Translations under genes and position numbers: made by a program | Assembly (NCBI GenBank): GCA_029213305.1 | Contig: JARGPA010000009.1 | Coordinates: 38,004-102,003 of the forward strand | Source of the DNA: Phycisphaerales bacterium | GTDB lineage: Bacteria; Planctomycetota; Phycisphaerae; Phycisphaerales; UBA1924 | Direction: 5' to 3' | DNA: 64,000 nt | The notes under the pieces: model-generated | The model's input: only the letters and a program-made list of their open reading frames with translations | Told to the model about the DNA's origin: nothing | Database searches by the model: none | Shown: positions 10,800 to 58,626 of the stretch, in pieces | How positions within the stretch are numbered: the stretch's first letter is position 1 | Layout of the letters: each line of letters starts with the position of its first letter

Positions 10800-11648
10800 T
10801 TAGACCGCGCTTGGGTGCCAGATTGTTTTGAACTCAACGAACGGGTCAATCCAGTTTGGACCTTCGCATGATTCGTCATCGTTGAAATCAACATCCTCGC
10901 GGATCGTCACTCTCTTGAGATTATCCGCAGATCCAAGTCGAAGTGTTGTTCGATGATCATCGCTGATCCCCGCTGCATGAATTCCGATGAGATCGCGATG
11001 TGATCCGAAGTGCTCAACAAGCTCGTCTCGTTGGCCACTCAACATATTGACAATCCCCCCAGGGAGATCACTCGTTGCGATCGCTTCGCTCAGGATCATC
11101 GCGGGGACAGGGTTGGTTTCACTTGCGAGAACTACACATGCATTGCCCATCGCGATCACAGGAGCGATTAATGAAATCAGTCCGAGCAAAGAGGGTTCAT
11201 CTGGTGAGATGACACCAACAGTACCCATTGCAAACGGGATCGTAAAGTTGTGATAGGGGCCTGCAACTGGGTTAGTGCCGCCCATTATTTGTGCGTATTT
11301 ATCAGTCCATCCTGCGAAATGGATCACGCGATCAATCGCAGCGTTGACTTCGTGTTCGCCGTTCTCTCCGATCGCGTGAGCAAGCTCAAGTCTTTTTCCT
11401 TCCATCATTTCTGCGAGTCGATAGAGGACTTGCCCTCGAAGAAATGCTGTTGCATTCGCCCAACTTGGTTGCGCCTTATTTGCAGATTCGACTGCGTTTC
11501 GGAGATCCTTGCGAGATGCTCGACATACATGCGCGACGAGGTTCTGAGACGAATCATGAACTTCAATAGTCCTTCCCGATTCGGTCCTCGGAAACTTGCC
11601 CCCGATTGCGAGCTTGTATGTTTTGATGATTGGTAGTCGTTCAGTCAT
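10800..11648 (-). CDS. Aldehyde dehydrogenase-family paralog lacking the catalytic domain (internally shortened, 282 aa)
   Basis: The N-terminus (YKLAIGGKF...RASRKDLRNAVESANKAQPSW) and the cofactor-domain strand GNACVVLASE match the ALDH fold. After NLKRVTIRE the protein jumps to an ALDH-like C-terminal end (FVEFKTIWH). No catalytic Cys/Glu region is present. Confidence 0.65.
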   Translation of the reverse strand: MTERLPIIKTYKLAIGGKFPRTESGRTIEVHDSSQNLVAHVCRASRKDLRNAVESANKAQPSWANATAFLRGQVLYRLAEMMEGKRLELAHAIGENGEHEVNAAIDRVIHFAGWTDKYAQIMGGTNPVAGPYHNFTIPFAMGTVGVISPDEPSLLGLISLIAPVIAMGNACVVLASETNPVPAMILSEAIATSDLPGGIVNMLSGQRDELVEHFGSHRDLIGIHAAGISDDHRTTLRLGSADNLKRVTIREDVDFNDDESCEGPNWIDPFVEFKTIWHPSAV

Positions 11649-13780: not shown

Positions 13781-14476
13781 ATGCCTCATAGCCGTCCTAA
13801 CCCGAGTCCTGTTCTGAATTCTTTACTGATTCATCGAAAGTCACGCTCCAAAATGGCCGCTTTGAGTTCAATGAGCAACTCGCAAAACGATAATTCAGAG
13901 CAGAAACAAGGGTACCACACTCGGAACGAGTCTCGACTCGGGATTGACAATCTGCATTGTTGTAAAGGCCGAGTTGCAGATATCACCGGTTCTGGGATGC
14001 GAATGATCGTCGCGCCATCAGATCTACCAGAGATTGGAGATGTCCAGTCGTACACCTTCAGCGATTCAACTGATGTACTCACTATTTCAGGGACAGTGAA
14101 GTGGGTTCGTAAACCCACCGCGTTCACTCGTAGAGGGGAAGTCGGAATCGAGTTCACAAAGCTCGAACCAGAAATCCGAGATTCAATCATCCGTCTCGCT
14201 GTTCAAGGGAAGATCAACGATTCAATCAAATCTGACATCCACGTTATCTATCCAAATCTATACGCTGCACTCGAGATTAATCATCATGCTTCCCATGATG
14301 AAATACAAGCTGCATATCGCAAGCACGCAAAGCAATGGCACCCAGATGTCAGCAAAGCGATGAACGCAACTCAGCGATTTGAAGAAATTCAACAAGCATA
14401 CTCAGTGCTTGGTGATGAAACCAAACGTGCACAATACGATGCTCGTTTCTTCACTAAAGATCAGCAAGCTGCCTGA
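13781..14476 (+). CDS. PilZ-like domain fused to a C-terminal DnaJ J-domain
   Basis: RNESR (RxxxR) is followed by VADITGSGMRM (D-x-S/T-x-x-G), matching the PilZ c-di-GMP signature. The C-terminus LYAALEINHHASHDEIQAAYRKHAKQWHPDV...FEEIQQAYSVLGDETKRAQYD is a J-domain with an HPD motif. The start may instead be ATG 13853. Confidence 0.7.
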   Translation: MPHSRPNPSPVLNSLLIHRKSRSKMAALSSMSNSQNDNSEQKQGYHTRNESRLGIDNLHCCKGRVADITGSGMRMIVAPSDLPEIGDVQSYTFSDSTDVLTISGTVKWVRKPTAFTRRGEVGIEFTKLEPEIRDSIIRLAVQGKINDSIKSDIHVIYPNLYAALEINHHASHDEIQAAYRKHAKQWHPDVSKAMNATQRFEEIQQAYSVLGDETKRAQYDARFFTKDQQAA

Positions 14477-39537: not shown

Positions 39538-40149
39538 ATGAAGACTACACTTGGACTTATCGCAGTTGCAGGTCTCGCTTCGGCAGCAGCAGCTGGTGGC
39601 GCAAGCCTTAGCATCGTTGCTTCAGCAGCTACAGTTGACACAACTGGCGCTTCAGCAACAGTAACTCTCGCTGTTTACGGCGACGCAGTTGGTACAGCAA
39701 TCGCTGGTGGCGAGTTCGCACTCACCGCTTCAGGCGGAGCTGGCCTTGTTTCAGACATGACCGGTGCTGCTGCAGCATGGGGTGCACTCGGCGGCCAAGA
39801 TAACGGCCACGCTGGTGACGGCAACTACAACGGATTGATCTTCGGTCAGTTGATCTTCCCTCCATTCATCAACCCAGCTGCAGAGTCAATGCTCGGCAAC
39901 GGTCCTGTCCTCTTGGGCAACATCACCGTTACCATCGCTGCTGACACTTCAGGTGTGATCGACTGGTCAACCGCTGCTGGTGCTGGCGACTTCATCCTTG
40001 AAGTATTCACTGATGACGGAGCTGCTGGTGTATTCGAGCAACTCACAGACGTTGCTCACGGATCAGCTTCACTCAACGTAGTACCTGCACCATCCGCTAT
40101 GGCTCTTCTCGGCCTCGGTGGACTCGTTGCTGGTCGTCGTCGCCGCTAA
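39538..40149 (+). CDS. PEP-CTERM-tailed secreted protein, paralog 1 (uncharacterised Ala/Gly/Thr-rich domain)
   Basis: RBS GAGGAGA. It has a signal peptide MKTTLGLIAVAGLASAAAAG, the core block GQLIFPPFINPAAESMLGNGPVLLG, and the tail VVPAPSAMALLGLGGLVAGRRRR. Codon choice is strongly C-ending. Confidence 0.85.
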   Translation: MKTTLGLIAVAGLASAAAAGGASLSIVASAATVDTTGASATVTLAVYGDAVGTAIAGGEFALTASGGAGLVSDMTGAAAAWGALGGQDNGHAGDGNYNGLIFGQLIFPPFINPAAESMLGNGPVLLGNITVTIAADTSGVIDWSTAAGAGDFILEVFTDDGAAGVFEQLTDVAHGSASLNVVPAPSAMALLGLGGLVAGRRRR

Positions 40150-40211
40150 TCGCTGCGTGACAACCGATTCAGTCGATAATCTTCGGATTTGACACTGTAC
40201 TGAATCAATAT

Positions 40212-40250
40212 CCCCCGATCGGGTTTTCCCGATCGGGGGTTCTTTTTTTT
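40212..40250 (+). terminator. Rho-independent terminator of paralog 1
   Basis: CCCCCGATCGGG-TTTT-CCCGATCGGGGG forms a 12-bp stem, followed by TTCTTTTTTTT. Confidence 0.85.
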
Positions 40251-40523
40251 GATATATGGGAATTACAGATTCGGTATGGAAATAAAGATTATCGGCGATA
40301 ATTGGGATGAATACGTCAAATCAGCTTGAAAACAGCGATTCGTGATGTGTGGATTCTAAAAAACGCCCACAATTCGGCAAAAATGAGATCTGAATTTGGT
40401 AATCGACTGGCACCAACCCCGAAGTTGGATTACTTTTCGGTCAGGTCACGAACGAGTTGTTCGTTCCAACAGGTCAACGGTTAAAAAATAGAATCCATAA
40501 ACAAATTTGAGGAGAACTTCCAA

Positions 40524-41132
40524 ATGAAGAACGCAATCGCACTTATCGCAGTAGCTGGTATCGCAACAGTCGCATCAGCAGGTGGCGCAAACCTAAGCAT
40601 CGTCGCTTCGGCTTCAACCATCGACTCAACAGTTTCAACTTCATTCACACTCGCAGTATACGGCGACGCAACCGGAACAGCTATGGCTGGTGGTGAGTTC
40701 GCTCTTACAGCTTCAGGTGGTGCAGGCATCGTTACTGACATGGTCGGTGCAGCAGCAGCATGGGGTGCTCTTGGACAAGAAGATCTCGGCCACGGCGGAG
40801 ACGGCAACTACAACGGCCTCATCTTCGGTCAGTTGATCTTCCCTCCATTCATTAACCCTGCTGCAGACTCAATGCTCGGCAACGGTCCAGTTCTCTTGGG
40901 TAACATCACTGTTACTATCGCTGCTGATTCAGCTGGCGTAATCGACTGGTCAACCGCAGCTGGTGCTGGTGACTTCATCCTTGAAGTATTCACCGACGAC
41001 GGAGCTGCAGGTGTATTCGAGCAGCTCACAGCTGTAGGTCACGGATCAGCACGTGTAAACGTTGTTCCTGCTCCATCAGCAATGGCAATGCTCGGCCTCG
41101 GTGGTCTCGTTGCAGGTCGTCGTCGCCGCTAA
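40524..41132 (+). CDS. PEP-CTERM-tailed secreted protein, paralog 2
   Basis: RBS GAGGAGA. It is collinear with and highly similar to paralog 1, with the core GQLIFPPFINPAADSMLGNGPVLLG and the tail VVPAPSAMAMLGLGGLVAGRRRR. Confidence 0.85.
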   Translation: MKNAIALIAVAGIATVASAGGANLSIVASASTIDSTVSTSFTLAVYGDATGTAMAGGEFALTASGGAGIVTDMVGAAAAWGALGQEDLGHGGDGNYNGLIFGQLIFPPFINPAADSMLGNGPVLLGNITVTIAADSAGVIDWSTAAGAGDFILEVFTDDGAAGVFEQLTAVGHGSARVNVVPAPSAMAMLGLGGLVAGRRRR

Positions 41133-41185
41133 TCGCTGCGAAACGCCGACACAGTTGATATTCAACTGAATACGCAATCTTAAGT

Positions 41186-41220
41186 CCCCCGATCAGTTCG
41201 CTGATCGGGGGTTCTTTAAT
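41186..41220 (+). terminator. Rho-independent terminator of paralog 2
   Basis: CCCCCGATCAG-TTCG-CTGATCGGGGG forms an 11-bp stem, followed by TTCTTTAATTT. Confidence 0.75.
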
Positions 41221-41364
41221 TTGCGATACAACCTTTATAACTACAAGATTCCATCTTGTGTCACATTAGATATTAGAATAACTTATGTATAAGAGATTAT
41301 GTGATCTCATTTGGATTCGGTACGACCACGATTTTTAGTTCCGTAGATATGTGAGGAGAAAGAG

Positions 41365-41985
41365 ATGAAAATTGCATTAGGAATGATTGCACTCGCAGGT
41401 CTTGCAAATATCGCAAGCGCACAGTCCGCATCGTTGAGCATTGTGAGTCCAGTTGCAACAATCGATACATCTGGAGGCTCAGTAAGCATTTCTCTGGAGA
41501 TCTTTGCGGATGTTGACTTTGGAACAGCAATCGCAGGAGGCGAGTTCGCACTTGATGGCACTGCTCCTGTCAATTCAGTCGCAAGTATGATTGGAGCTTC
41601 AGCAGCATGGGGAGAACTCGGATTCCAGGATAACGGGTATGCTGGAGACGCTGATTACAATGGGATGATCTTTGGACAGTTGATCTTCCCTCCATTCATT
41701 AATCCAGCTGTAGAGTCAATGCTCGGTAACGGCCCAGTCTTGCTTGGAACGGTAACAGTCGTAATCAATTCTCACACTTTTGGTGTCTGGGACTGGAATA
41801 CCGCTGCAGGATCAGGTGATTTCATGCTTGAGATTTATACTGATGACGGTGGCGCTGGAGTCTTTACCCAGTTGACTGCTGATGATATATCAATGGGTAG
41901 TGCTTCATTGAGTGTTGTTCCTAACCCATCTTCACTCGTGATTATTGGCGTTGGAGGTCTGATCGGTACTCGCCGTCGCCGCTAA
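41365..41985 (+). CDS. PEP-CTERM-tailed secreted protein, paralog 3
   Basis: RBS GAGGAGA. It has the signal peptide MKIALGMIALAGLANIASA, the core GQLIFPPFINPAVESMLGNGPVLLG, and the tail VVPNPSSLVIIGVGGLIGTRRRR. Confidence 0.85.
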   Translation: MKIALGMIALAGLANIASAQSASLSIVSPVATIDTSGGSVSISLEIFADVDFGTAIAGGEFALDGTAPVNSVASMIGASAAWGELGFQDNGYAGDADYNGMIFGQLIFPPFINPAVESMLGNGPVLLGTVTVVINSHTFGVWDWNTAAGSGDFMLEIYTDDGGAGVFTQLTADDISMGSASLSVVPNPSSLVIIGVGGLIGTRRRR

Positions 41986-42036
41986 TCGCTGCGAAACGCC
42001 GACACAGTTGATATCCAACTGAATACGCAATCTTAA

Positions 42037-42070
42037 GCCCCTCGATCAGTTCGCTGTTCGGGGGGCTTTA
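42037..42070 (+). terminator. Degenerate copy of the paralog-2 terminator, downstream of paralog 3
   Basis: GCCCCTCGATCAG-TTCG-CTGTTCGGGGGGC has two stem mismatches relative to a perfect hairpin, and its T tract is weak. Confidence 0.45.
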
Positions 42071-42216
42071 ATTTGCGATACAGCCTTTAAAACAACAAGA
42101 TTTCATCTTGTGTCACATTAGATATTAGAATAACTTATATATAAGAGATTATGTGATCTCATTTGGATTCGGCACGACCACGATTTTTAGTGCCGTAGAA
42201 ATGTGAGGAGAAAGAG

Positions 42217-42837
42217 ATGAAAATTGCATTAGGAATGATTGCACTCGCAGGTCTTGCAAATATCGCAAGCGCACAGTCCGCATCGTTGAGCATTGTGAGT
42301 CCAGTTGCAACAATCGATACATCTGGAGGCTCAGTAAGCATTTCTCTGGAGATCTTTGCGGATGTTGACTTTGGAACAGCAATCGCAGGAGGCGAGTTCG
42401 CACTTGATGGCACTGCTCCTGTCAATTCAGTCGCAAGTATGATTGGAGCTTCAGCAGCATGGGGAGAACTCGGATTCCAGGATAACGGGTATGCTGGAGA
42501 CGCTGATTACAATGGGATGATCTTTGGACAGTTGATCTTCCCTCCATTCATTAATCCAGCTGTAGAGTCAATGCTCGGTAACGGCCCAGTCTTGCTTGGA
42601 ACGGTAACAGTCGTAATCAATTCTCACACTTTTGGTGTCTGGGACTGGAATACCGCTGCAGGATCAGGTGATTTCATGCTTGAGATTTATACTGATGACG
42701 GTGGCGCTGGAGTCTTTACCCAGTTGACTGCTGATGATATATCAATGGGTAGTGTTTCAGTATTTATGATACCTGCGCCTTCATCTATCGCACTTATTGG
42801 ACTCGGTGGATTGATTGGTACTCGTCGTCGTCGCTGA
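42217..42837 (+). CDS. PEP-CTERM-tailed secreted protein, paralog 4 (identical to paralog 3 except for the tail)
   Basis: The first 179 residues are identical to paralog 3. The tail is VSVFMIPAPSSIALIGLGGLIGTRRRR. Confidence 0.85.
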   Translation: MKIALGMIALAGLANIASAQSASLSIVSPVATIDTSGGSVSISLEIFADVDFGTAIAGGEFALDGTAPVNSVASMIGASAAWGELGFQDNGYAGDADYNGMIFGQLIFPPFINPAVESMLGNGPVLLGTVTVVINSHTFGVWDWNTAAGSGDFMLEIYTDDGGAGVFTQLTADDISMGSVSVFMIPAPSSIALIGLGGLIGTRRRR

Positions 42838-42870
42838 GAACATTCGTCCGTAAACTGAGTTAAAAAATAG

Positions 42871-42904
42871 ATACCCCATAGCAGTCTGCTGTGGGGTATT
42901 TTGT
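42871..42904 (+). terminator. Rho-independent terminator of paralog 4
   Basis: ATACCCCATAGCAG-TC-TGCTGTGGGGTAT forms a stem with one G-U pair, followed by TTTTG. Confidence 0.7.
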
Positions 42905-42997
42905 GTAACCCACTAAAGAGTGGGTCTCGTAAAGACATGAATGTGGTACTCTTGTTGTGAGTACTGATCATCCATCGAAAAGAGTCGAAGGGAAGTA

Positions 42998-43606
42998 TTG
43001 ATGAACCGGACAGTTTGCATCTTCGCATTTGCAGGTCTCGTAACCCAAGCGTCAGCGCAGAATTATATTCTTCGAATCGAAGGCGGCCCGCAACAAGTAA
43101 ATACCAGCTCAGGATCTGTCTCAATCACCCTCGATGTGATCGGAGATGCAGAAGAAGGTCTTGGGACTCACATGCTTTGGGGGAGCTTTGCTCTCGAATC
43201 AATCGGTTCAGCGGTTATCGAAGATATCAGTTGGACCCATGCAGATTGGTCAGAGTTTAATATCGATGGTGGATACGACGGCCTAGGCGCTTACAACCGT
43301 ATCGAGTTCGGGCAATGGGAGGGATCAGGGTTCATTCCACGATCTGGTTCCGAACTTGGACAGTTGATCGGACAGTTCCAAATCACACTCGCACAGAGTG
43401 ATATTGCATCTGGGATGCTCGATTTTAGATTGTTACAATCAAGCTCATATGCTTTGAGCACTATTGATATCGATACAGGCGCATCGTATTACTCTACTCC
43501 TGAAGACTTAGTTCTGGAAGGGTTTTCGACGGTTGTAGTTCCTGCACCTTCAAGTGCGATGATCGTTCTGAGCGCTAGTCTTCTCTCGATTCGTCGAAGA
43601 CGATAG
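42998..43606 (+). CDS. PEP-CTERM-tailed secreted protein, divergent paralog 5
   Basis: It has the same length and outline as the other paralogs: signal peptide MMNRTVCIFAFAGLVTQASA, SGSVSITLDVIGDA, FGQWEGSGFIP, and the tail VVVPAPSSAMIVLSASLLSIRRRR. Sequence identity to paralogs 1-4 is low. Confidence 0.75.
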   Translation: MMNRTVCIFAFAGLVTQASAQNYILRIEGGPQQVNTSSGSVSITLDVIGDAEEGLGTHMLWGSFALESIGSAVIEDISWTHADWSEFNIDGGYDGLGAYNRIEFGQWEGSGFIPRSGSELGQLIGQFQITLAQSDIASGMLDFRLLQSSSYALSTIDIDTGASYYSTPEDLVLEGFSTVVVPAPSSAMIVLSASLLSIRRRR

Positions 43607-48595: not shown

Positions 48596-49165
48596 TTATT
48601 GTATTGTATTCACAAATGTACCTCGTTCACGATCCTTGATCGGTCCAGGGAACGAGAGTGCCTTTGTGTGCGCGACGACATAAACACCTGGGTCCAAAAT
48701 CGTCGCAGCGAAGATCGATTCATTTAAGTTCTGGAGCGCATCTGATCGTTTCATCTCGAATGGTCTCATCGCACCTGTCAAGATAACGGGAACAGTGAGC
48801 TGATTATCTGGAGATGCGTTCTCGACGAGGGATTTGTGAAGCCAATCTCCAGTTTCACACAAAGTGTCTGTGCCGTGAAGGATAACCACTCCTCGACATC
48901 CGTTGGGATCGGCCAAGGGGTCATCAGTCACGGGTCCGATTACGAGTTTTACAGCATCGAGAATCCGGGCCCGATCCGCATCTGTCAGATCAAGTGAATC
49001 TTTCTGCATAAGTTGGAGTGTGTTGACTTGGGTGTCCTCAAGTCTGAGGAGTCTGAGCATTTCCTGCACGATAGATGCCCTGTTCGAGAGGGTTCCTGCG
49101 TGTTCATCGTAGGTTTTCTCGATGGTTCCACCAGTTGAAATCAGCGTGATCTGTCGCATAGGCAT
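48596..49165 (-). CDS. Short (N-domain-only) L-asparaginase-family protein
   Basis: ORF 48596..49348. The start was taken at ATG 49165 because GAGGAG lies 6 nt upstream. ITLISTGGTIEK holds the catalytic Thr motif, and HGTDTL and VPVILTGAMRP are also present. At about 189 aa it lacks the C-terminal domain. Confidence 0.75.
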   Translation of the reverse strand: MPMRQITLISTGGTIEKTYDEHAGTLSNRASIVQEMLRLLRLEDTQVNTLQLMQKDSLDLTDADRARILDAVKLVIGPVTDDPLADPNGCRGVVILHGTDTLCETGDWLHKSLVENASPDNQLTVPVILTGAMRPFEMKRSDALQNLNESIFAATILDPGVYVVAHTKALSFPGPIKDRERGTFVNTIQ

Positions 49166-49231
49166 AAGATGCTCCTCGATTCTTGTCGATATCGTAGTCG
49201 ACGATCGAGTGATGGTCAGGAGGATTCGTTT

Positions 49232-50731
49232 ATGCCGATGCTGAGTCTCAAAGAAGCATATGATAATGCGAAGAGCCTCTATGACAAGGGTTATTATCGG
49301 GCCGCCGTCAATGCGGCGAAGGTCCTCTACAAACAAAAACCTCACCATCCGCCCGTAGTTGCTTTATATGTTGGATCGCTCCTGCGTGTTCAGAGGTTCA
49401 AAGAAGGAATTTTGATTGCGAAACGATCATTAAGACACATTACTTTCAAAGAACATCGGATCGCGATCATCAATCAGCTCAGTGAAGGACTCACCCAAGC
49501 AGGGCAACTCGATGACGCAATCGAGATGATCAGATTAGAGTTTGAAAAGCAACCCAATCATCCATCACTTATCGCAGCGTACACCCATCTTCTCGTGATG
49601 AACAATCAACGAGATGTTGCGGTAGAGTTCATTGACTCCTTGCGAGAGCAAGGAATCGAGGGGTTGGTGATCGCTGCTGTCTTCGGCCGAGCAGTCTTAA
49701 GAACGGATCGAAGAGATGAAGCAATCGAATGGATCACCAGACTCCTAGAAGAAAACGAAGACGCAGACCCAAACCAGAAACAACAAGCGCTCAACTCGCT
49801 GGGGCATCTTCTCGATCGCGCAAAGCGATACGATGAAGCAATGGTTGCATTCAAAGAGTCCAACAAACAAATCGATCCTGGTTTTATCAAGCGTCGACAC
49901 CAAGTTGTTGTTGATTCAATACATCAGAACTGGACACTAGAGCAGATGCAAAGTGTTCAGAGGCCTGATCCACAAGGGATCCGTCCAATATTTATTGTTG
50001 GGATGCCTCGCTCAGGAACGACTCTCACTGAGCAGATCATTGATGCACATCCAAAGGGGTTCGGTGCAGGCGAACTCGGTTTCATGTCCGAGTTGTTTAT
50101 TAGTATTGCTCACAACGAGTTGAACCCATACGAGACGCATCCAAGAGATTACACTACAGAGCAAATCGCAGAGGTTGCTCGAGCCTATCGAGAAGAGACG
50201 GCCGCGATGGTCGCGGATGAATCAGTGGAAGTTATAGTCGATAAAGCGCCAATGAACTTTCATTATTTGGGATTGATCGCACTTGCGTTCCCAGACGCAA
50301 AGATTATTCATTGTCAACGCGATCCACGCGACAACTGTCTTTCTTGTTTCTTCCAGTTGCTCAATCCTGGACATGGATATAGTTTCGATCTTGCCGCGTC
50401 TGGTATTTACTACAGACAGTATCGCCAGATTATGGAGCATTACACTCCACTGATTGCTCAAGAACCATTCAATATGACAATCTTCGAAAACGATTACGAG
50501 GGGATGGTTGCGGATCAGGAGAAACGGACTCGCGAGATTTTAGATTTCATTGGTTTAGAATTTGATCCTGCGTGTCTTGAGTTCCATTCCACAGGCCGAA
50601 TCGCAAACACACTCAGTAATGAGCAGGTTCGTCAACCGATCTACAAATCATCCACCAAGCGATACGAACGATATTCAAAGCATTTGGTCCCTTTAGTCGA
50701 TGCATTGGGTGATGTGCTCGATGATGAATGA
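49232..50731 (+). CDS. TPR-repeat sulfotransferase, paralog 1
   Basis: ORF 49169..50731, with ATG 49232 preceded by AGGAGG. It has an N-terminal TPR half, the 5'-PSB-type loop IFIVGMPRSGTTLTEQII, the 3'-PB-type HCQRDPRDNCLSCFFQ, and the C-terminal QVRQPIYKSSTKRYERY. Confidence 0.8.
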   Translation: MPMLSLKEAYDNAKSLYDKGYYRAAVNAAKVLYKQKPHHPPVVALYVGSLLRVQRFKEGILIAKRSLRHITFKEHRIAIINQLSEGLTQAGQLDDAIEMIRLEFEKQPNHPSLIAAYTHLLVMNNQRDVAVEFIDSLREQGIEGLVIAAVFGRAVLRTDRRDEAIEWITRLLEENEDADPNQKQQALNSLGHLLDRAKRYDEAMVAFKESNKQIDPGFIKRRHQVVVDSIHQNWTLEQMQSVQRPDPQGIRPIFIVGMPRSGTTLTEQIIDAHPKGFGAGELGFMSELFISIAHNELNPYETHPRDYTTEQIAEVARAYREETAAMVADESVEVIVDKAPMNFHYLGLIALAFPDAKIIHCQRDPRDNCLSCFFQLLNPGHGYSFDLAASGIYYRQYRQIMEHYTPLIAQEPFNMTIFENDYEGMVADQEKRTREILDFIGLEFDPACLEFHSTGRIANTLSNEQVRQPIYKSSTKRYERYSKHLVPLVDALGDVLDDE

Positions 50732-50805
50732 TTGATCACGAAATTGAGCACCAAAACGCATATACTGCGAAACGAATAATAATTGCCCATATCCGGGAGT
50801 GAACG

Positions 50806-52332
50806 ATGCAACAACCAGCACAACAGAATCAACCTACGCCTCAACAAGTCTTTGAAGAAGCTTATCGACTTCTCCGTATCGGTGATGTGTACGAAGCTGC
50901 GAAACGAGCAGGTAAGTTGCGAATGCACTTCCCGCAGGATGTTCCAGTGCTCACACTCCACGGGATTGTTCTCGCGCAGATGGGTGTTCATCCTCAAGCG
51001 CTCAGTGATCTGATCTTGGCAGCGAAACTCACAGAAGAAGCACTCAAAAACGAAACGGACGAAAATCCGAATCGTCCGCGCATTGTGGATCAGTTGATTC
51101 GACTCAGTGTTCATATTTGTCGTTCTTCAGTTGCAATCAATGAGTTTGATGCTGCTACTGAAGCAATCGAGAACGCACTGGGTTGGGATCCAGATCGTGG
51201 AGATGCAGTTGCAGCGAAAGCAGAACTCTTCGCAAAGCAAGATCGTGAATCTGAAGCTTTAGAGCTCATCACGAATGCACAAAATGAGATGCTCGAATCA
51301 ATGCCGCTAGCTTTGAGCAAGGGGAAAATCCTTCTCGGTTCAGAGAATACGTCAGATGATGCGTTGAGAGCATCATTGAAAGAACTCAGCACAGAAGCCG
51401 AAGTTTCAGGTTTAGGAGCACTCGATCTGAGCGATCTTCTTCGTGTCATCGGGATGATCCATGATCGACTCGGAGAGTTCGATGAGTCATTTAACTCCTT
51501 CCGCAGAGCTGCGAAACTCCGTCGGGGATCGTATGACCCTCGATCACATACGATGATGACGACAAAGATTTGTGCAGAATGGAACGAAAACAGTCTCACC
51601 AAGTTGATCAAACCCCAAGCGTCGGGTGAACGCTTTGTTCTCTTGCTCGGCGCACCTCAATCTGGAGTTGATGAACTCTCAGAGATGCTCTGCCAGTTCG
51701 ATGGCGCCAAGGTTGTCGGCCCACTCGAAACTCTTTCGATGATCGGTGTCAAACATCTTGGAGCTCGTCAAGGCGTGCTTCGACCAGTACCGTTCGAGCC
51801 ATCGAAGTTCCGTGGCGCTCAAATTAAAGAAGCTGGTGATGCATACAACGACCAAGTTTCGCCGTTACTTGACGACTCGGTTCTTCGAGCTGTTGATACA
51901 CATCCGCACAATATTCCCCTCGCAGGCGCTGCGGCAACAATCCTTCCAGGAATCAACATTGTCATCTGTCGAAGAGACCCGATGGAGTCAATCTTGTCTA
52001 CTTATTGTGATTCGATGATTGGGAACCATCCATACGCAGGGGATCTCGTAAACCTTTCAGGGTTTGTAACGGATTGCAATCGGATGCTCGATCATTGGGC
52101 ATCATTCCTTGGGAACGAATCAATCGGTGCAAATATCGTGGAAGTCGATTATAAAGATCTTGCGAAAGATCCGAAGAAGATTGCCGCAAAGGTTGCCCGT
52201 GAGATCGGACTCGATGCAAGAGCAACTTCAGTGAATCGTGTTCCTGATTTTGATACAGGACCAAGCACACATCCTGAGAAATATGCTTCGTATACAAAAT
52301 CGGTTGAAGAGTTTGTTAACCCAGTGTCATAA
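50806..52332 (+). CDS. TPR-repeat sulfotransferase-like protein, paralog 2 (degenerate PAPS-binding loop)
   Basis: RBS GGGAG. The architecture is the same, but the loop reads FVLLLGAPQSGVDELSEML, the second motif reads CRRDPMESILSTY, and the conserved C-terminal QVRxPIYxSS block is absent. Confidence 0.65.
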   Translation: MQQPAQQNQPTPQQVFEEAYRLLRIGDVYEAAKRAGKLRMHFPQDVPVLTLHGIVLAQMGVHPQALSDLILAAKLTEEALKNETDENPNRPRIVDQLIRLSVHICRSSVAINEFDAATEAIENALGWDPDRGDAVAAKAELFAKQDRESEALELITNAQNEMLESMPLALSKGKILLGSENTSDDALRASLKELSTEAEVSGLGALDLSDLLRVIGMIHDRLGEFDESFNSFRRAAKLRRGSYDPRSHTMMTTKICAEWNENSLTKLIKPQASGERFVLLLGAPQSGVDELSEMLCQFDGAKVVGPLETLSMIGVKHLGARQGVLRPVPFEPSKFRGAQIKEAGDAYNDQVSPLLDDSVLRAVDTHPHNIPLAGAAATILPGINIVICRRDPMESILSTYCDSMIGNHPYAGDLVNLSGFVTDCNRMLDHWASFLGNESIGANIVEVDYKDLAKDPKKIAAKVAREIGLDARATSVNRVPDFDTGPSTHPEKYASYTKSVEEFVNPVS

Positions 52333-52365
52333 CGAGCATTGTTTTTCTGACATCATGCAAATGAA

Positions 52366-53016
52366 TCAGCCACCCTTGCAACCGCAGGAAGCTTTTCCAC
52401 ACCCCTGGTCTGAGCAAGGCTCAGGTTCAGGCATTGGTCCTACAAGCTTTTCGATTTTCGCATTAAGATACCACGCGTGATGCTCAAGGTGCCAGCAATG
52501 GTAGTTCGCAATCGTCCTTGCGCTCATAGGACCATTCGTTGGATGGAGTCCTTCTCGATTCCATTGTTCATCATCGAGTTGCATGAGCAGCGCAACAAGC
52601 CAGGCTCGGCTGGTATGAATCATCGCGAGATCTCCGCCCATTGGGGGGAGCAAGTTTGAGCCTTCAGTACAGCCGTAGATCCCGCCGTCGATGAACGCAT
52701 GTTCATCCCAGAGATGAATTGTTGGACGATCTTCTGCGATGATCTTGCGGATGCGATGTGCAAGCACTACTTCTGCGTCTGCGAGATGTCCGATGAGTAC
52801 TCTGATCGGCCATGTTCCTACGTTCGCATCGTCGAGCCAAGCTTGCGATACTTGATCGTTATCGAGCTCAACAACCCGCGGATCAAAACACTCAAGGCCA
52901 AGATGCATCCTCGAACAGAGCGTTGCGTGATCGAGGTCACGGATTTTACGCATCGAAGGCTTCGGGCAGATCTGGTCTAACTTTGATTCAGTTGCTTGCA
53001 TTGGTTGATTACTCAT
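52366..53016 (-). CDS. DinB-superfamily protein with Cys-rich C-terminal tail
   Basis: ORF 52366..53037 has a TTG start, and ATG 53016 is more likely. HLADAEVVLAHRIR and HLEHHAWYL are DinB-like His metal-site helices. The tail is CSDQGCGKASCGCKGG. Confidence 0.6.
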   Translation of the reverse strand: MSNQPMQATESKLDQICPKPSMRKIRDLDHATLCSRMHLGLECFDPRVVELDNDQVSQAWLDDANVGTWPIRVLIGHLADAEVVLAHRIRKIIAEDRPTIHLWDEHAFIDGGIYGCTEGSNLLPPMGGDLAMIHTSRAWLVALLMQLDDEQWNREGLHPTNGPMSARTIANYHCWHLEHHAWYLNAKIEKLVGPMPEPEPCSDQGCGKASCGCKGG

Positions 53017-53052
53017 AGTCAACAATAGCTCGCACAATGAGAACTTGCTCGA

Positions 53053-53649
53053 TTATGGTACAAACCATCGTAAGCGATAGTTGTTCCCCTCGAATACTGT
53101 ATCAATACCGATCCAATAGAGGGATTCGTTACGAATCCTCGATATTTTAAGTCGAAAAGTGTTTTTACCTACCGTTTCAAGATACAACCCCGGGGTGTAC
53201 TCACCCATTGGCATGAAGTAGAAGAGGCGCCCAATATCCCGGTAGTGCTTGAGCAACTCATCGAAGGCTAACCCCGGATCAAGTCCTCGTTCGTAAAACT
53301 CGTCCTTCGTTCGTTGAGAGAGCACTTGTTCAACAAAGAGTTCTCGTTCACCATTTTGAAGTGTTGTGATGATTTGAGCCATCAACTGTCGGATAGATTT
53401 TGCGTACAGAGTCACGCTTCCATCTTCGTCAACAACTCGGATACCTTCGTCTGGAGTACGCAAGAAATCTGGGAGAGGTCGAGCAGCTTTCTTCTCAGGG
53501 ATATTCGATTCTGCACCTTCGATTCCGGAAAGAATACTAGAACGTGAAACGACTCGTTCATAAGTGCACGCAGACATGCAAAAACTAAAACCCAATACAA
53601 TAAAGGCAATCAAAAGGCGAGTTGATGTTCGCGTACAAATCAGGTTCAT
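53053..53649 (-). CDS. Hypothetical lipoprotein
   Basis: 198 aa with a signal peptide whose Cys context is FSFCMSAC. Its start overlaps the nadB stop (ATGA), implying co-transcription. Confidence 0.55.
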   Translation of the reverse strand: MNLICTRTSTRLLIAFIVLGFSFCMSACTYERVVSRSSILSGIEGAESNIPEKKAARPLPDFLRTPDEGIRVVDEDGSVTLYAKSIRQLMAQIITTLQNGERELFVEQVLSQRTKDEFYERGLDPGLAFDELLKHYRDIGRLFYFMPMGEYTPGLYLETVGKNTFRLKISRIRNESLYWIGIDTVFEGNNYRLRWFVP

Positions 53650-55382
53650 AGCCGTAAGTTCGATACGCCGGAATCTTGGTCCGGTTCTGATTGATCTGCG
53701 AGAGACTCAGAATCTTCACCCTTGGCAAGAGAATGAGCATATCGAGGAGAATCTAAATCACGAGTCCAAATTGTATGACGATGTTGTTCATCTCGAGTTG
53801 ATGTGTTCGATTGATCGATCGGAGACCCGATGATGCAATGAGCTCCGATTGATTGGGTTCGATGGAGTGCAGATCGAGCAATCAACGCCCCTGCAGTGAG
53901 CATGTTCTGGACCTCCCATCCATCGGGAGTTTCAAAGACTTTATCAAGTGTATAGCGCCCCCAAAGATCGAACATCGTGCATGCATCGTCGAGTTTGGTC
54001 ATTGTGCGTTCAATCCCAGCATTAAACCACATTGTTGATCGAAGAGAAGATCGAACATCCTCAAGATCAAGCTCAGCGTGATTCGATCGTTCAATTGTTG
54101 AGATGATCGGGCTCGGGGTAATCTGTTGGGAATCGACTCGATTAGCTGCTTCTTCTCCTGCGATTGCACCCATTACGAGCCCTTCAAGCAGCGAGTTAGA
54201 TGCAAGTCGATTCGCGCCGTGAAGTCCTGTGCAAGAGACTTCTCCAACTGCGAGTAAGTTTGGAAGATTTGTCCGAGTCCGGAGATCAGTTCGAACCCCT
54301 CCGATTGTGTAATGAGCAGCGGGATGAACCGGGATGAGATCCTTTGCAGGATCGAGTCCAAATGAGTTTAATGTTGAATGAATTCCCGGGAACCGCTCTG
54401 GGAAGTGTTCGATATGTCGACAATCGAGCCAGACATGTTTGCCGCCTTGGATCGCGAGTTGTTTTACGATTGCATTAGCAACAACATCACGAGGAGCGAG
54501 CTCTGCGAGCTTGTGTATATCAGGCATGAATCGATGCCCGGCGTGATCTAATAAAAAAGCTCCTTCGCCGCGGACTGCTTCTGAGATGAGTGCACGCGTT
54601 GCACCAGGAATATAGAGTGTTGTAGGATGGAACTGGATGAACTCCATGTCCGCGAGTTCTGCGCCTGCGCGATACGCCATTGCGATCCCGTCAGCTGTTG
54701 CTACGCGTGGATTGCTCGTCTCACGATAGACTTGGCCCGCACCACCCATTGCGAGGATCGTAGTTCGAGCCCAAACAACTTGTAACCCGTATTTAGGGTG
54801 CCATGTCATTGCGCCGAGTATGGGCGAGTTTGGTGTGTTTGATTGTGTGAGTAGATCGATGACATAACAATGATCAAACAAACGGATGTTGTCTTGTTGC
54901 TTTGCTTTATCTATGAGTGTGCGTTGGAGTTCAATTCCAGTTGCATCTCCATCAGAATGAAAAACGCGTGAGGCGTGATGTCCACCTTCTCGGCCTGCAA
55001 GTAGATTTCCCTCATCGTCGCGATCGAACTGCATTCCCCAATCGATAATTTCACGAATACATGCGGGACCTTGACGACAAACAAGATCCACGGCTTCACG
55101 ATCGCAGAGGCCTGCGCCCGCGGTCATGGTGTCTTCGATGTGAGCTTCGATTGTGTCGTTGTCCTTGAGAACTCCTGCGATTCCACCTTGTGCCCATGAG
55201 GTGTTGGTCTGATCCAACGATTCCTTTGCACAAACGATGACTTGTCCGTTCTTTGAAGCGCCGATCGCGCTCCGAAGTCCTGCAACTCCCGATCCAAGCA
55301 CAAGCGTGTCACAGAAAATTTGCGGCAAAAGCCCCGTACGGAACGGGATCAAGTATCGACGAGTATCAAAGATTGTGTTCAA
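53646..55382 (-). CDS. nadB: L-aspartate oxidase
   Basis: 578 aa. It has the FAD dinucleotide fold DTLVLGSGVAGLRSA, then SWAQGGIAGV, FHPT and RLASNSLLEG. The acidic C-terminal extension has no obvious counterpart in the NadB proteins I know. Confidence 0.9.
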   Translation of the reverse strand: MNTIFDTRRYLIPFRTGLLPQIFCDTLVLGSGVAGLRSAIGASKNGQVIVCAKESLDQTNTSWAQGGIAGVLKDNDTIEAHIEDTMTAGAGLCDREAVDLVCRQGPACIREIIDWGMQFDRDDEGNLLAGREGGHHASRVFHSDGDATGIELQRTLIDKAKQQDNIRLFDHCYVIDLLTQSNTPNSPILGAMTWHPKYGLQVVWARTTILAMGGAGQVYRETSNPRVATADGIAMAYRAGAELADMEFIQFHPTTLYIPGATRALISEAVRGEGAFLLDHAGHRFMPDIHKLAELAPRDVVANAIVKQLAIQGGKHVWLDCRHIEHFPERFPGIHSTLNSFGLDPAKDLIPVHPAAHYTIGGVRTDLRTRTNLPNLLAVGEVSCTGLHGANRLASNSLLEGLVMGAIAGEEAANRVDSQQITPSPIISTIERSNHAELDLEDVRSSLRSTMWFNAGIERTMTKLDDACTMFDLWGRYTLDKVFETPDGWEVQNMLTAGALIARSALHRTQSIGAHCIIGSPIDQSNTSTRDEQHRHTIWTRDLDSPRYAHSLAKGEDSESLADQSEPDQDSGVSNLRL

Positions 55383-55410
55383 GCATGGCTCCAGCTCTTG
55401 ACGACGATTC

Positions 55411-55434
55411 CAACAAGGTCGACAACAAGGTCGA
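55411..55434. promoter_or_regulatory. Perfect 12-bp tandem direct repeat in the nadB / sulfotransferase-3 divergent intergenic region
   Basis: CAACAAGGTCGA occurs twice in tandem, 29-52 nt upstream of the nadB start. Its function is unknown. Confidence 0.25.
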
Positions 55435-55601
55435 GTATTCTATGCGTTCCCAATGGGTGGGAATTCTGTATGCTCATCGGTCTAAGATACGAACTCAAGC
55501 GGTGTTTAGATCGTCAAGAATCCCCAAGGTAGGCGACTTGTGCAAGTCAAATACTGGGTAAATGGCCTTGATTGATTGATCGATCGGAGTGATCAGAGCG
55601 T

Positions 55602-57032
55602 ATGGCGAAGAATCCACGAAAAGCAGCAGAACTATTCCTTAAAGGAACTGAAGCAATTAAAGCAGAGAGTTTTAGCGTCGCAAAAACGATGCTGACGAAA
55701 GCACACGAGCTCGATCGAGATAATCCTGATATCATGCTCCGGCTTGGACAAGTCCTCATTGCATCCGGATTTGCGAGAGAATCTGTTGAGATCATGAAGA
55801 AGTGCGTAAAACGCAAACCGAACTATCCAGACTCAATGATATTGCTCTCCCAAGGATTCATGGAGATAGGACAGATCGATGAAATGCATCGCATTCTCGA
55901 TAAAGCACTCGCATGGGATCCGACGCATGGCGTATGTATCCACGCAAAAGTCACAGGGTATATCAACTCAGGTGAGCTAGAACTCGCAGAGGAAGTCGTT
56001 AAAAAAACCTACGAGATTCAAAATCCGCATCCATTGATCTACATGTGTAGAGGAAAGCTCTATCGAGCTCAGAAAGACTATTCAAAGGGTGTCGAAGAGA
56101 TAAGTAAGATCTTTGAACATCCAGATGCACGAGATCGACACAAGCGATCTGCACGATTCGAGATGGGGCATCTCCATGACGCGATGGGAGAATATGACAC
56201 TGCGTTTGAACATTTCAAAATCGGGAACAGCGGTCACATCCAAGGACGATTGCTCCACGCTCCAACGATGATTTCGATGTGGTCGCCTGAAATGCTTTCA
56301 AATATTCCACAGTCAGAGAACGATTCTCATAGGCCGGTATTCGTTGTTGGTATGCCTCGATCAGGGACAACCCTGACAGAGCAAATTCTCGCTGCTCACC
56401 CAAAGGTTGCAGGGATCGGAGAGTGTTCTTTGACCGCACATATGTTGCGACGTCGGACTCCGACTTCTTTGACTTCGAATGACATTGAATCCTACGCAAA
56501 GGAGTATCTTGATTATCTTGATGAGCGAGTAGACGGGGATGTTGAACGAACAATCGATAAGCATATTGGTGCAGAACGAACATTGGGTTTAATTAGTAGA
56601 ATGTTCCCTAATGCAAAGGTTATCCATTGTTTACGTAGTCCAGTCGATTCTTGCTTGAGTTCATATTTTCAGAACTTCGGAGTCAATGTTCCATATTCAA
56701 GGGATTTGGTATCACTCGGGAAGCAGTATGTCGCTCATCGTCAAGTAATGGATCATTGGTACGAGGTGCTTGATCTAGAGATACTGCAAAGTCCGTATGA
56801 GCAACTTGTCGACGATTCAGAGAACCGATCAAGGTTATTGGTCGATCACATCGGGCTCGAGTTCGATGAGCAATGCTTGCGTTTCCATGATTCGAAGAAA
56901 TATATCGGGACAGCGAGCAGTGTGCAGGTTCGCAAGCCGATCTACAAGTCGAGCCGCGAACGATGGCGAAACTATGAAAAACACATCGGACCTTTGATTG
57001 ATCAGTTGGGTGAATATGCTGATATTGACTAG
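55602..57032 (+). CDS. TPR-repeat sulfotransferase, paralog 3
   Basis: It has a TPR N-terminal half, VFVVGMPRSGTTLTEQIL, HCLRSPVDSCLSSYFQ and QVRKPIYKSSRERWRNY. Confidence 0.8.
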   Translation: MAKNPRKAAELFLKGTEAIKAESFSVAKTMLTKAHELDRDNPDIMLRLGQVLIASGFARESVEIMKKCVKRKPNYPDSMILLSQGFMEIGQIDEMHRILDKALAWDPTHGVCIHAKVTGYINSGELELAEEVVKKTYEIQNPHPLIYMCRGKLYRAQKDYSKGVEEISKIFEHPDARDRHKRSARFEMGHLHDAMGEYDTAFEHFKIGNSGHIQGRLLHAPTMISMWSPEMLSNIPQSENDSHRPVFVVGMPRSGTTLTEQILAAHPKVAGIGECSLTAHMLRRRTPTSLTSNDIESYAKEYLDYLDERVDGDVERTIDKHIGAERTLGLISRMFPNAKVIHCLRSPVDSCLSSYFQNFGVNVPYSRDLVSLGKQYVAHRQVMDHWYEVLDLEILQSPYEQLVDDSENRSRLLVDHIGLEFDEQCLRFHDSKKYIGTASSVQVRKPIYKSSRERWRNYEKHIGPLIDQLGEYADID

Positions 57033-57108
57033 TATGAGATATTCGAGATCAATCAAGGTTCCTAGATTATGATCCAGAATTGTGTAATCAGTTGGAGATA
57101 GAAAGCAT

Positions 57109-58566
57109 ATGACACAGTTTAACATTCCATCAGATTCAGGAAATCCATCTGTGATGACCGCCTATCAGAAGACGGTTAAGAACTGTCGTGATCTCATCGA
57201 AGCGGGGCAGTATGGACCCGCAGTGAATATGCTTTCAGGCGCGCTCAAGCAATCCCCGCGTGATTCGATTGTTTTGCGGATGCTCGGGCACTCGTTGATG
57301 ATGCTTGATGCACCCAAAGAAGCAATCCATTATCTCACCTTTGCGTCAAAGCTCGATCCAAAGAATCCAGATTTGTTATGCGATCTCGCGTCTGCACTCC
57401 GTCGAGTTGATGAACTCAGAAAAGCTCATCAGGCTGCCGACGACGCGCTCAAGATTGCAAAGAACTACCCAAGAGCGATCATGGTGAAAGCAAGACTCTT
57501 GCAATCGCATGGGCAATCCCAAAGAGCATATGAACTTGTAAAAGAATCTCTCAACGAACATTTCGACACAGGGTTGTTGGGCACCTACGGGCATCTCTGT
57601 AGAGAACTCAAGTTTCAATCTGAAGGGATCGACGCGATGCGCAAGGGGCTCGAAGTCCAAGGGCTCCCTCGACCCAACCGTCAGGATATTCTCTTTGTGC
57701 TTGGACATCTTCTCGACTCAATGGGCGAATACGATGAAGCATTTGATTGTTTCTCAAAAGGCAACGCGATGTCCAACGAAGGATCAGTTGTCGATGTTGA
57801 AAAATACCTTGAGCGTTGGAGTAAAGAACACTACGACTCAGTCCCTCAAGCAGACGTCGACGGGTCACGCGCGGTCTTCATCGTTGGGATGCCTCGTTCT
57901 GGTACAACGCTTACCGAGCAGATCATTGCTTCGCACCCGAGCGCGGGCGGTGTGGGTGAGAGCCAGTTGATCGATCGATTAACGAAACAGAATCCGCCGG
58001 AAGAATACGATCAAGCCTTTGTGAACGAGTGTGGAAAGAGTTATCTAGACATGCTTGTCGATCATTTTCCTCAACAAACAACGAAACGTGTTTGTGACAA
58101 GATGCCTGAGAATTATTATTTCCTAGGATTCATCAATCGCATTTTACCTGGATCCCACATCATCCATTGCAGAAGAAATCCGATTGATACTTGCTTATCG
58201 ATCTTCTTCCAACGCTTTGGCCCGCGTCTTGCATACGCTACAGATCTTGGGAACTGCGCCGATCAGTTCCTTGTGTATACACACATCATGAAGTACATCA
58301 CAGAAACCTTAGAGATCAAGGTTCATGATGCAGTGTACGAAGAAACAACCAAGAATCCTGAATCTTCCATTCGTGCGATGCTTGATCATATTGGGTTACC
58401 ATTTGATAACGCGAGTATGGAGTTCCATAAGAGCAAGAAATCAGTCCACACCGCAAGTGCAGCTCAGATCCGTCAACCGATGTACACAAGCTCGTCACAA
58501 CGCTGGAAAAACTATGAAAAATATCTAGGGCCGATCATCGAGAAACTGTCTCCTGTGCTCGATTAA
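57109..58566 (+). CDS. TPR-repeat sulfotransferase, paralog 4
   Basis: RBS GGAG. It has a TPR N-terminal half, VFIVGMPRSGTTLTEQII, HCRRNPIDTCLSIFFQ and QIRQPMYTSSSQRWKNY. Confidence 0.8.
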   Translation: MTQFNIPSDSGNPSVMTAYQKTVKNCRDLIEAGQYGPAVNMLSGALKQSPRDSIVLRMLGHSLMMLDAPKEAIHYLTFASKLDPKNPDLLCDLASALRRVDELRKAHQAADDALKIAKNYPRAIMVKARLLQSHGQSQRAYELVKESLNEHFDTGLLGTYGHLCRELKFQSEGIDAMRKGLEVQGLPRPNRQDILFVLGHLLDSMGEYDEAFDCFSKGNAMSNEGSVVDVEKYLERWSKEHYDSVPQADVDGSRAVFIVGMPRSGTTLTEQIIASHPSAGGVGESQLIDRLTKQNPPEEYDQAFVNECGKSYLDMLVDHFPQQTTKRVCDKMPENYYFLGFINRILPGSHIIHCRRNPIDTCLSIFFQRFGPRLAYATDLGNCADQFLVYTHIMKYITETLEIKVHDAVYEETTKNPESSIRAMLDHIGLPFDNASMEFHKSKKSVHTASAAQIRQPMYTSSSQRWKNYEKYLGPIIEKLSPVLD

Positions 58567-58593: not shown

Positions 58594-58626
58594 GAAAAAA
58601 CCCCACTGAAAGAGTGGGGTTTTTTA
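58594..58626. terminator. Bidirectional rho-independent terminator between convergent genes
   Basis: AAAAAACCCCACT-GAAAG-AGTGGGGTTTTTT, with A and T tracts on both sides. Confidence 0.8.

Follow-up and report, generated by a model that had tools for sequence, protein, structure and literature searches.

Two gene pairs of TPR-fused, TPST-like sulfotransferases in Phycisphaerales, one of them with a conserved, apparently inactive member

Apart from the RaxST-RaxX system of Xanthomonas, in which a secreted peptide is sulfated on tyrosine, O-sulfation of proteins is considered a modification that eukaryotes apply to their secreted proteins. RaxST is a cytoplasmic bacterial sulfotransferase that depends on 3′-phosphoadenosine-5′-phosphosulfate (PAPS) and acts on a polypeptide before export, a likeness to what is predicted of the proteins that are the subject of this report. 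These are the products of four genes, denoted ST1 to ST4, in a 64,000-nucleotide stretch of the genome of a marine Phycisphaerales bacterium (contig JARGPA010000009.1; the whole stretch is referred to below as the window). Each protein combines an N-terminal array of tetratricopeptide repeats (TPRs) with a C-terminal sulfotransferase domain, and among the sulfotransferases of solved structure the closest relatives of this domain are the tyrosylprotein sulfotransferases (TPSTs). TPST1 and TPST2 have protein acceptors and are dimeric enzymes; dimerization completes the active site, TPST1/TPST2 heterodimers exist, and the catalytic residues of TPST2 are R78, E99, K158 and S285 (PMC5562738).

As judged from the sequences, the locus appears to encode two probably bicistronic pairs of TPR-guided, cytoplasmic, PAPS-dependent sulfotransferases, in one of which, ST1-ST2, an enzyme would be accompanied by a pseudoenzyme. 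To this interpretation, taken as a whole, we give an even chance; the underlying statements on the domains, orthology and degeneracy of the four proteins are made with high confidence.

Domain architecture and catalytic residues

The original prediction, made from the letters of the window, had listed four open reading frames (ORFs) of one strand in which a TPR half is fused to a sulfotransferase half, and all four are present as listed, on the + strand (Table 1). It had also proposed profile searches, in which the four domains all exceed the gathering cut-off (27 bits) of the Sulfotransfer_3 family (PF13469), with 134.5 bits for ST1, 47.8 for ST2, 119.3 for ST3 and 106.7 for ST4 and domain starts at residues 252, 281, 245 and 256, respectively. 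All four proteins match Sulfotransfer_1 too, and their N-terminal halves match TPR families of Pfam. In the AlphaFold2 models of ST1 (predicted local distance difference test score, pLDDT, 90.5; predicted TM-score, pTM, 0.88) and ST2 (pLDDT 92.4), these halves are all-helical solenoids of 13-14 helices. Because signal peptides and transmembrane segments are absent from ST1-ST4 (maximum 19-residue Kyte-Doolittle hydropathy 0.8-1.9; hydrophilic N-termini), the four proteins are predicted to be cytoplasmic.

The motifs described in the original prediction as common to three of the four proteins, namely GMPRSGTTLTEQI, RxPxDxCLS and Q[VI]RxP[IM]YxSSxxR[WY]xxY, occur in ST1, ST3 and ST4, whereas ST2 lacks them or has degenerate versions. 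Likewise, the loop that binds 5′-phosphosulfate (5′-PSB loop), P-[RK]-S-G-T-T, and the R...S motif of the 3′-phosphate-binding (3′-PB) site are intact in the same three proteins and not in ST2.

The relationship with TPSTs becomes apparent when a profile built from ten catalytic domains of four phyla is compared with the Protein Data Bank (PDB): the best matches are TPST1 (7.5e-21), TPST2 (2e-17) and tick TPST (7.7e-17), followed by the olefin-synthase sulfotransferase (2.3e-9), Stf9 (4.8e-9), CurM (8.8e-8) and the cytosolic sulfotransferases (SULTs; 2e-7 or weaker). A search with the single sequence of the ST1 catalytic domain gave weak matches, of which the olefin-synthase sulfotransferase (4gox) was the best at 2.6e-7, with TPST2 at 1e-5. 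In Foldseek comparisons of the ST1 model with the PDB, the catalytic half retrieves TPST1, TPST2 and tick TPST (target TM-score near 0.6), and the whole chain retrieves SPY, OGT and AspH, three enzymes in which a TPR arm delivers protein substrates to the catalytic domain.

Three of the four catalytic residues of TPST2, R78, E99 and K158, align with ST1 R260 (in PRSG), E281 (GAGEL) and K338 (DKAP), and ST1 R363 and S371 align with the 3′-PB motif of the TPSTs. All these ST1 residues, together with S462, are invariant in 92 orthologues, and the key-residue pattern RTTEKRSSR is common to ST1, ST3 and ST4. The C-terminal T-x-S-x-x-Q-V-R-x-P block is also invariant; the HMMER alignment to TPST is not reliable that far, and this block is probably the counterpart of the TPST segment that holds S285.

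Relationships of the four paralogues and degeneration of ST2

Orthologues from different genomes are 57-67% identical in each of the four groups, compared with 19-33% for members of different groups. A maximum-likelihood tree built from 121 catalytic domains has a Phycisphaerales clade made up of ST1; a second clade from this order (SH-aLRT 99) contains ST3 and ST4 as sister groups, and the two clades join with a support of 92. Given these identities and the separate clades in the tree, the four genes are old orthologous groups rather than recent copies, and the duplications are old; the phylogeny that the original prediction had recommended thus resolves four distinct paralogue lineages. Since ST2 has a stem of 1.4 substitutions per site and was flagged for long-branch attraction, its placement in the tree, sister group included, is unreliable.

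Orthologues of ST2 fall into 72 clusters, all of Phycisphaerales type and 33-85% identical, beyond which there is a cliff to E ~5e-9. In the window, the 5′-PSB loop of ST2 reads GAPQSGVDE, with the Arg and the Thr-Thr lost. At the position of the loop Arg, the 70 orthologue clusters that were aligned have His (34), Met (15), Lys (11), Gln (3) or other residues, Gly among them; they lack the Thr-Thr, and all 70 have Pro where the catalytic Glu would be. In the ST2 of the window, Thr substitutes for the catalytic Lys (T365, conserved in at least 90% of the orthologues), and the C-terminal block is absent. Of the 3′-PB residues, the Arg is kept (R390, invariant) and the Ser is variable among the orthologues. 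Against the family hidden Markov model (HMM), the ST2 group scores 75-88 bits, compared with at least 180 bits for 113 of the 114 other sampled domain instances and 39 bits for the remaining one. Accordingly, the treatment of the four paralogues as a set in the original prediction holds for their homologous architecture but not for catalysis: ST2 is degenerate and is not a fourth equivalent enzyme.

There is no sign of decay in ST2. Across the same genome pairs it is 61, 61 and 42% identical, compared with 62, 67 and 43% for ST1, that is, it diverges at the pace of ST1, and its reading frame is unbroken in all 70 clusters. What differs is the distribution of conservation, which in ST1 is 0.59 for the TPR half versus 0.74 for the catalytic half and in ST2 is 0.71 versus 0.66; no part of ST1 is as conserved as its 5′-PSB segment, which in ST2 ranks among the least conserved. 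This pattern, inverted relative to ST1, looks like the signature of a pseudoenzyme retained for binding.

Pairing, acceptors and alternative readings

ST2 lies directly 3′ of ST1 in nine of the nine genomes examined. The boundary between the two genes is a 4-nt overlap in L006 (gene calls) and an 8-nt gap in L011 (our own ORF calls); ST3 and ST4 are separated by 3 nt in L001 (gene calls) and overlap by 4 nt in L009 and L011 (our own ORF calls). The boundaries in these relatives are tighter than the 74- and 76-nt gaps of the window, and the overlap in L006 is indicative of translational coupling. Within the window, no convincing terminator, and no hairpin like the one that follows ST4, separates the two genes of either pair. 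Both pairs are probably bicistronic, and it appears that a catalytically dead ST2 is maintained by purifying selection and obligatorily co-encoded with the active-type ST1.

The fused homologues of these proteins bear on the same question. Two to four complete TPR-sulfotransferase modules are present in a single polypeptide in 64 of the 149 best family representatives, although this list is biased toward multi-domain proteins, since summed scores favor them. The Arg-Glu-Lys triad is intact in 206 of the 219 modules, including all 85 single-module proteins, and degenerate modules occur only in multi-module proteins of this set, beside an intact module of the same chain. Module 2 of one such protein (P0262) resembles ST2 in that the catalytic Glu is replaced by Pro, the catalytic Lys is lost (Ala, where ST2 has Thr) and the C-terminus is missing, and yet it is not specifically related to ST2. 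Giant family members (P0201, P0202, P0205 and P0233; 1,650-2,820 aa) have three or four complete modules per chain, and at least one of the four modules of P0233 lacks the catalytic Glu and Lys.

With the degeneracy and constraint of ST2, the adjacency of the two genes, the fused homologues and the dimers of TPSTs taken together, an enzyme/pseudoenzyme heteromer of ST1 and ST2 seems to be the most economical reading, and perhaps ST3 and ST4 form a heteromer as well; heteromer formation as such is about as likely as not. Under this scheme, the TPR solenoid, of some 6-7 repeats, would recruit a protein or peptide acceptor, by analogy with OGT, SPY and AspH, and ST1, ST3 and ST4 would transfer sulfate from PAPS to a hydroxyl of the recruited molecule. 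ST2 would pair with ST1 as a pseudoenzyme subunit, in a heterodimer built like the TPST dimer, where its role would be in binding or regulation and not in catalysis; a similar pairing of ST3 with ST4 may exist. The acceptor class, the use of PAPS and the formation of heteromers are all inferred from the sequences. The proposal of the original prediction that the TPR modules point to protein or macromolecular targets is strengthened by the closeness to TPSTs and by the architecture common with SPY, OGT and AspH, and a protein or peptide acceptor for ST1, ST3 and ST4 is slightly favored over all other acceptors combined.

Several observations weigh against this interpretation. The class of acceptor cannot be read from sequence: other enzymes of this superfamily sulfate acyl intermediates bound to acyl carrier protein (CurM and the olefin-synthase enzyme) or glycolipids (Stf). 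At the positions that align with R101 and R105 of TPST2, which presumably bind the acidic substrate peptide, ST1 has Gly and Glu. The case for a heteromer is drawn entirely from gene adjacency and from fusions in other proteins. A Glu is found two residues past the lost catalytic Glu in 69 of the 70 ST2 orthologues and, because this nearby Glu is present and the 3′-PB Arg is kept, ST2 may have residual or rewired activity. In the 80 loci that were surveyed (the best 80 of at least 555 relatives), no neighbor family or operon partner recurs across phyla beyond lineage-specific synteny, and exported proteins are not enriched beside the family genes (15 of 102 immediate neighbors versus 80 of 528 distant ones by a crude signal-peptide test; p = 1). 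Finally, a literature search found no study of a TPR-fused sulfotransferase; the sulfotransferases considered by Iyer et al. (2010; PMC2938197) are linked to 2-oxoglutarate (2OG) dioxygenases and do not represent the TPR-sulfotransferase architecture.

The best surviving alternative, although an unlikely one, is that the ST enzymes sulfate a carbohydrate, such as exopolysaccharide (EPS), lipopolysaccharide, capsule or a glycoprotein's glycan, with the TPR arm as a scaffold to the biosynthetic machinery and not to a protein substrate. Marine bacteria produce sulfated polysaccharides, and PEP-CTERM proteins, which are encoded 5.6 kb away in the window, are reportedly tied, as a rule, to EPS loci; furthermore, in a gammaproteobacterial locus (L007) two TPR-sulfotransferases lie after the XrtA/PEP-CTERM regulators PrsT, PrsK and PrsR. 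However, no glycosyltransferase, polysaccharide export or EPS gene is present among the scanned ORFs of the 64-kb window or among the Pfam-annotated gene calls in eight loci retrieved through exact matches of their proteins, the survey of 80 loci yields no recurrent neighbor family across phyla, and the match of the catalytic domain to the TPSTs (TPST1, 7.5e-21) surpasses that to any other solved sulfotransferase by over 10 orders of magnitude. The absence of PAPS-synthesis genes and glycosyltransferases noted in the original prediction is borne out among the window ORFs of at least 150 aa (Pfam domains; three of these ORFs have no Pfam match), and its suggestion that envelope polysaccharide is sulfated finds no contextual support.

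It is also conceivable, but quite improbable, that ST2 is active, with a rewired active site or another donor or chemistry, and that the four genes encode independent enzymes that are merely syntenic. ST2 does retain GxPxSG, the invariant R390 and, near the positions where catalytic residues were lost, E308 and H366, both almost invariant, along with an intact frame throughout its orthologues. Nevertheless, three TPST catalytic residues, namely the loop Arg, the base Glu and the Lys, have been replaced, and the loop Arg position is variable (H, M, K, Q or G); the C-terminal block, the probable counterpart of the segment with the fourth TPST catalytic residue, S285, is missing; the 5′-PSB segment is among the least conserved parts of the protein; and, family-wide, degenerate modules are found only beside an intact module in the same protein.

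A more specific version of the protein-acceptor interpretation holds that the pairs are heterodimeric cytoplasmic protein sulfotransferases that modify abundant surface proteins before export, with the acidic PEP-CTERM coat proteins as the obvious candidates; we consider this very unlikely to be correct as a whole, and the PEP-CTERM proteins themselves to be improbable substrates. The array of such proteins noted in the original prediction is real (Table 1), and proteins of about 200 aa with a PAPSAMALLGLGG..RRRR tail are encoded no further than about 6 kb from ST1-ST2 in six Phycisphaerales genomes, even though gene order has been rearranged; apart from the tail, the mature parts of these proteins display weak or no similarity. 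In L005, three genes lie in this order on one strand: the asparaginase-family gene, a tail-type PEP-CTERM gene and, downstream of both, a third TPR-sulfotransferase. The gammaproteobacterial locus L007 (1-11899) contains, in this order, PrsT, PrsK (719 bits; cut-off 300), PrsR (688 bits; cut-off 502.6), a peptidyl-prolyl isomerase, a 173-aa VPLPA-CTERM protein and two tandem TPR-sulfotransferases; it is the only surveyed locus with family members inside an XrtA/PEP-CTERM regulatory cluster, and the adjacency to PrsK and PrsR is unique to it. No Tyr, however, is conserved across the PEP-CTERM proteins compared, and of the surveyed flanks only 11 of 80 contain such tails, so that a general PEP-CTERM linkage of the family was rejected. 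The surface-protein link proposed in the original prediction is suggestive in Phycisphaerales and some gammaproteobacteria, where the proximity is seen in the six genomes and a few loci, respectively, and fails as a general rule, for want of a universal Tyr and of signal-peptide enrichment.

Three further candidates were considered and discarded. The Tyr of a DxxYNG motif, a putative sulfation site in the PEP-CTERM array, is found in close relatives only and is absent from the tail-sharing proteins of L003, L005 and L006. A sigma-54 promoter common to the sulfotransferase and PEP-CTERM genes was not supported by the number of matches (34 versus 29 expected), and a leader motif, CGATCGxAGTGAT..CAG, upstream of ST1 and ST3 is not kept in relatives.

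Sulfation of a small molecule, lipid or secondary-metabolite intermediate, in the manner of CurM, the olefin-synthase sulfotransferases and mycobacterial Stf, is improbable, since the single-sequence match of ST1 to 4gox and the presence of Stf1 and Stf9 among the fold-search matches are set against a family profile that matches TPSTs far better, a neighborhood free of polyketide synthase, nonribosomal peptide synthetase, lipid or tailoring genes, the family-wide conservation of a TPR arm some 240 aa long, which would not be expected of a small-molecule enzyme, and, as the ortholog-context survey advised in the original prediction turned out, no consistent linkage to a small-molecule pathway in 80 loci.

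Genomic context and comparison with known systems

The two same-strand pairs are split by an opposite-strand nadB-lipoprotein-DinB unit, exactly the layout given in the original prediction, as judged from Pfam and NCBIfam matches (Table 1). The start of ST1 was placed at 49232 in preference to the mechanical ORF start at 49169, because the consensus of 92 orthologues opens with MPMxSxKDAY.

Table 1. Features of the ST locus and of its surroundings in the window
Feature	Position	Strand	Description
PEP-CTERM array	39538..43606	+	Five acidic PEP-CTERM-type secreted proteins; PAPS...RRRR tails; weak candidate substrate set
Asparaginase-family gene	48596..49159	-	~187 aa, single domain; PF00710 N-terminal domain only; divergent from ST1
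Divergent intergenic region	49160..49231	unstranded	72 nt, asparaginase-family gene / ST1; sequence read directly
ST1	49232..50731	+	499 aa; TPR ~1-240, TPST-like sulfotransferase ~250-499; catalytic set intact
ST2	50806..52332	+	508 aa; TPR and degenerate sulfotransferase fold; conserved probable pseudoenzyme; 74 nt 3′ of ST1
DinB_2 protein, 198-aa lipoprotein and nadB unit	52366..55382	-	Pfam and NCBIfam matches; sits between the pairs
ST3	55602..57032	+	476 aa; TPR and TPST-like sulfotransferase; catalytic set intact
ST4	57109..58566	+	485 aa; TPR and TPST-like sulfotransferase; catalytic set intact; 76 nt 3′ of ST3
Terminator-like palindromic hairpin	58595..58625	unstranded	13-bp stem, after ST4; common to ST4 and a convergent OmpH-like gene

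In the intervening unit, nadB encodes L-aspartate oxidase (TIGR00551, 515.5 bits; cut-off 452.75) and the 198-aa protein has an N-terminus of lipoprotein type; the unit has no evident part in the sulfotransferase system. The closest database proteins to the four ORFs come from marine metagenomes and from metagenome-assembled genomes named Phycisphaerales (Planctomycetota). The genomic context of the ST region consists of housekeeping genes (GcvP, nadB, DHFR, rsmH), and the region was recovered in DNA metagenome runs.

The full layout of two pairs around the nadB-lipoprotein-DinB unit is also found in L001 and L004 (62-67% identity) and in L009 and L011, and the same four genomes contain orthologues of ST3. 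In the distant genomes L003, L005 and L006 (42-44% identity), ST1-ST2 is located elsewhere, without this unit; the core there is a trio consisting of the divergent short asparaginase-family gene, ST1 and ST2, with the other flanks rearranged. The asparaginase-family gene precedes ST1 in L001, L003, L004, L005 and L006 and is the one neighbor that stays with ST1-ST2 in every genome examined, divergent across 60-85 nt. Its product scores 56.7 bits with TIGR00519, far under the cut-off of that model. An ATAAG(A/C/G)T(T/G) element located beside its start codon is conserved in six genomes. In L005 (2197-7917), the third TPR-sulfotransferase is flanked by a tryptophan-halogenase-like gene and an amidohydrolase.

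Elsewhere in the window, the giant FliD pointed out in the original prediction is real: the protein (6090-9095, - strand) is unusually long, at 1001 aa; some 600 unassigned residues lie between its terminal FliD_N and FliD_C domains, and fliS (5585-6046, -) comes next after it. A 231-aa protein (13781-14476, +) joins a PilZ domain to a C-terminal DnaJ (J) domain, an uncommon pairing. A 282-aa ORF (10800-11648, -) matches only the first half of an aldehyde dehydrogenase model, and a full-length aldehyde dehydrogenase is encoded two genes away (12225-13760, -); the shorter ORF may be a truncated paralogue or a gene fragment.

The family to which the ST proteins belong is very large. An exhaustive HMMER search with ST3 yielded 9,779 clusters at 50% identity (E<=1e-30), and a relative is encoded in at least 555 of the 600 pattern-matched stretches listed (one genome per GTDB species). 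The best 80 of these at least 555 relatives belong mostly to Pseudomonadota and Planctomycetota, with a few in Desulfobacterota, Nitrospirota and Verrucomicrobiota. TPR-sulfotransferase genes often adjoin genes for other TPR-fused proteins (L031 6834-10717; L036, L039, L056 and L017), among which one joins TPRs to a class I methyltransferase and several join TPRs to a C-terminal region without a Pfam match. In the Mesorhizobium loci L008, L020-L024, L040 and L053 and in a few other alphaproteobacteria, a neighbor gene of one family, which is Porin_2 in L008, lies beside the single TPR-sulfotransferase gene; this is lineage-specific synteny that is not seen in other phyla.

The significance of the locus stems from the combination, across this family, of a TPST-like catalytic domain with a protein-docking TPR arm. 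ST1-ST2 is a naturally split active/inactive pair that predicts a heteromeric enzyme and brings its own control for biochemical work, and ST3-ST4, a second pair predicted to be fully active, is available for comparison in the same genome. If the acceptors are proteins, bacterial sulfoproteomics would be opened as a subject; if they are glycans or lipids, a function would be assigned to thousands of genes that are annotated by domain only. Should the sulfation of surface proteins prove true, the family would constitute a widespread, undescribed bacterial system for cell-surface protein sulfation.

Among known systems, the catalytic domain has most in common with TPST1, TPST2 and tick TPST (5WRI/5WRJ, 3AP1, 8W5Z), with which it shares the PRSGTTL 5′-PSB loop, the Glu base, the Lys and the 3′-PB Arg and Ser. 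In contrast, the TPSTs are type II Golgi membrane proteins without TPRs, and their membrane-bound, lumenal topology is not found in ST1-ST4, which are predicted to be soluble, cytoplasmic and TPR-fused and are only ~20-22% identical to them. ST1, ST3 and ST4 can be considered TPST-like in their predicted chemistry but not orthologues of TPSTs. RaxST differs from the ST proteins in having no TPR arm; neither a precursor peptide, nor a peptidase-ABC exporter, nor PAPS-synthesis genes, as in RaxST-RaxX, are present in the window or the syntenic loci, and no NCBIfam model for a RaxST-type system matched. OGT, SPINDLY and AspH have the same order of an N-terminal TPR superhelix and a C-terminal catalytic domain (whole-chain Foldseek), but the catalytic domains, those of GT41 glycosyltransferases and a 2OG oxygenase, respectively, are unrelated to that of the ST proteins, and the likeness is architectural only.

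The closest match is to the family already catalogued by NCBI, whose name, 'tetratricopeptide repeat-containing sulfotransferase family protein', is carried by several of the closest proteins. Its proteobacterial, Nitrospirota and other members have the same architecture and are 33-49% identical to the ST proteins, and its paralogues cluster, with at least two family genes in 31 of the 80 surveyed loci. The differences are that the two modules of each pair are split here into adjacent genes, whereas many relatives fuse 2-4 modules, and that ST2 represents an extreme outlying lineage, which is limited to Phycisphaerales. Rather than being a new system, the locus belongs, as a well-defined member that includes an unusual variant, to a family that is catalogued but unstudied; its one unusual feature is a conserved ST2, catalytically dead by its residues, that is obligatorily encoded beside an active-type enzyme.

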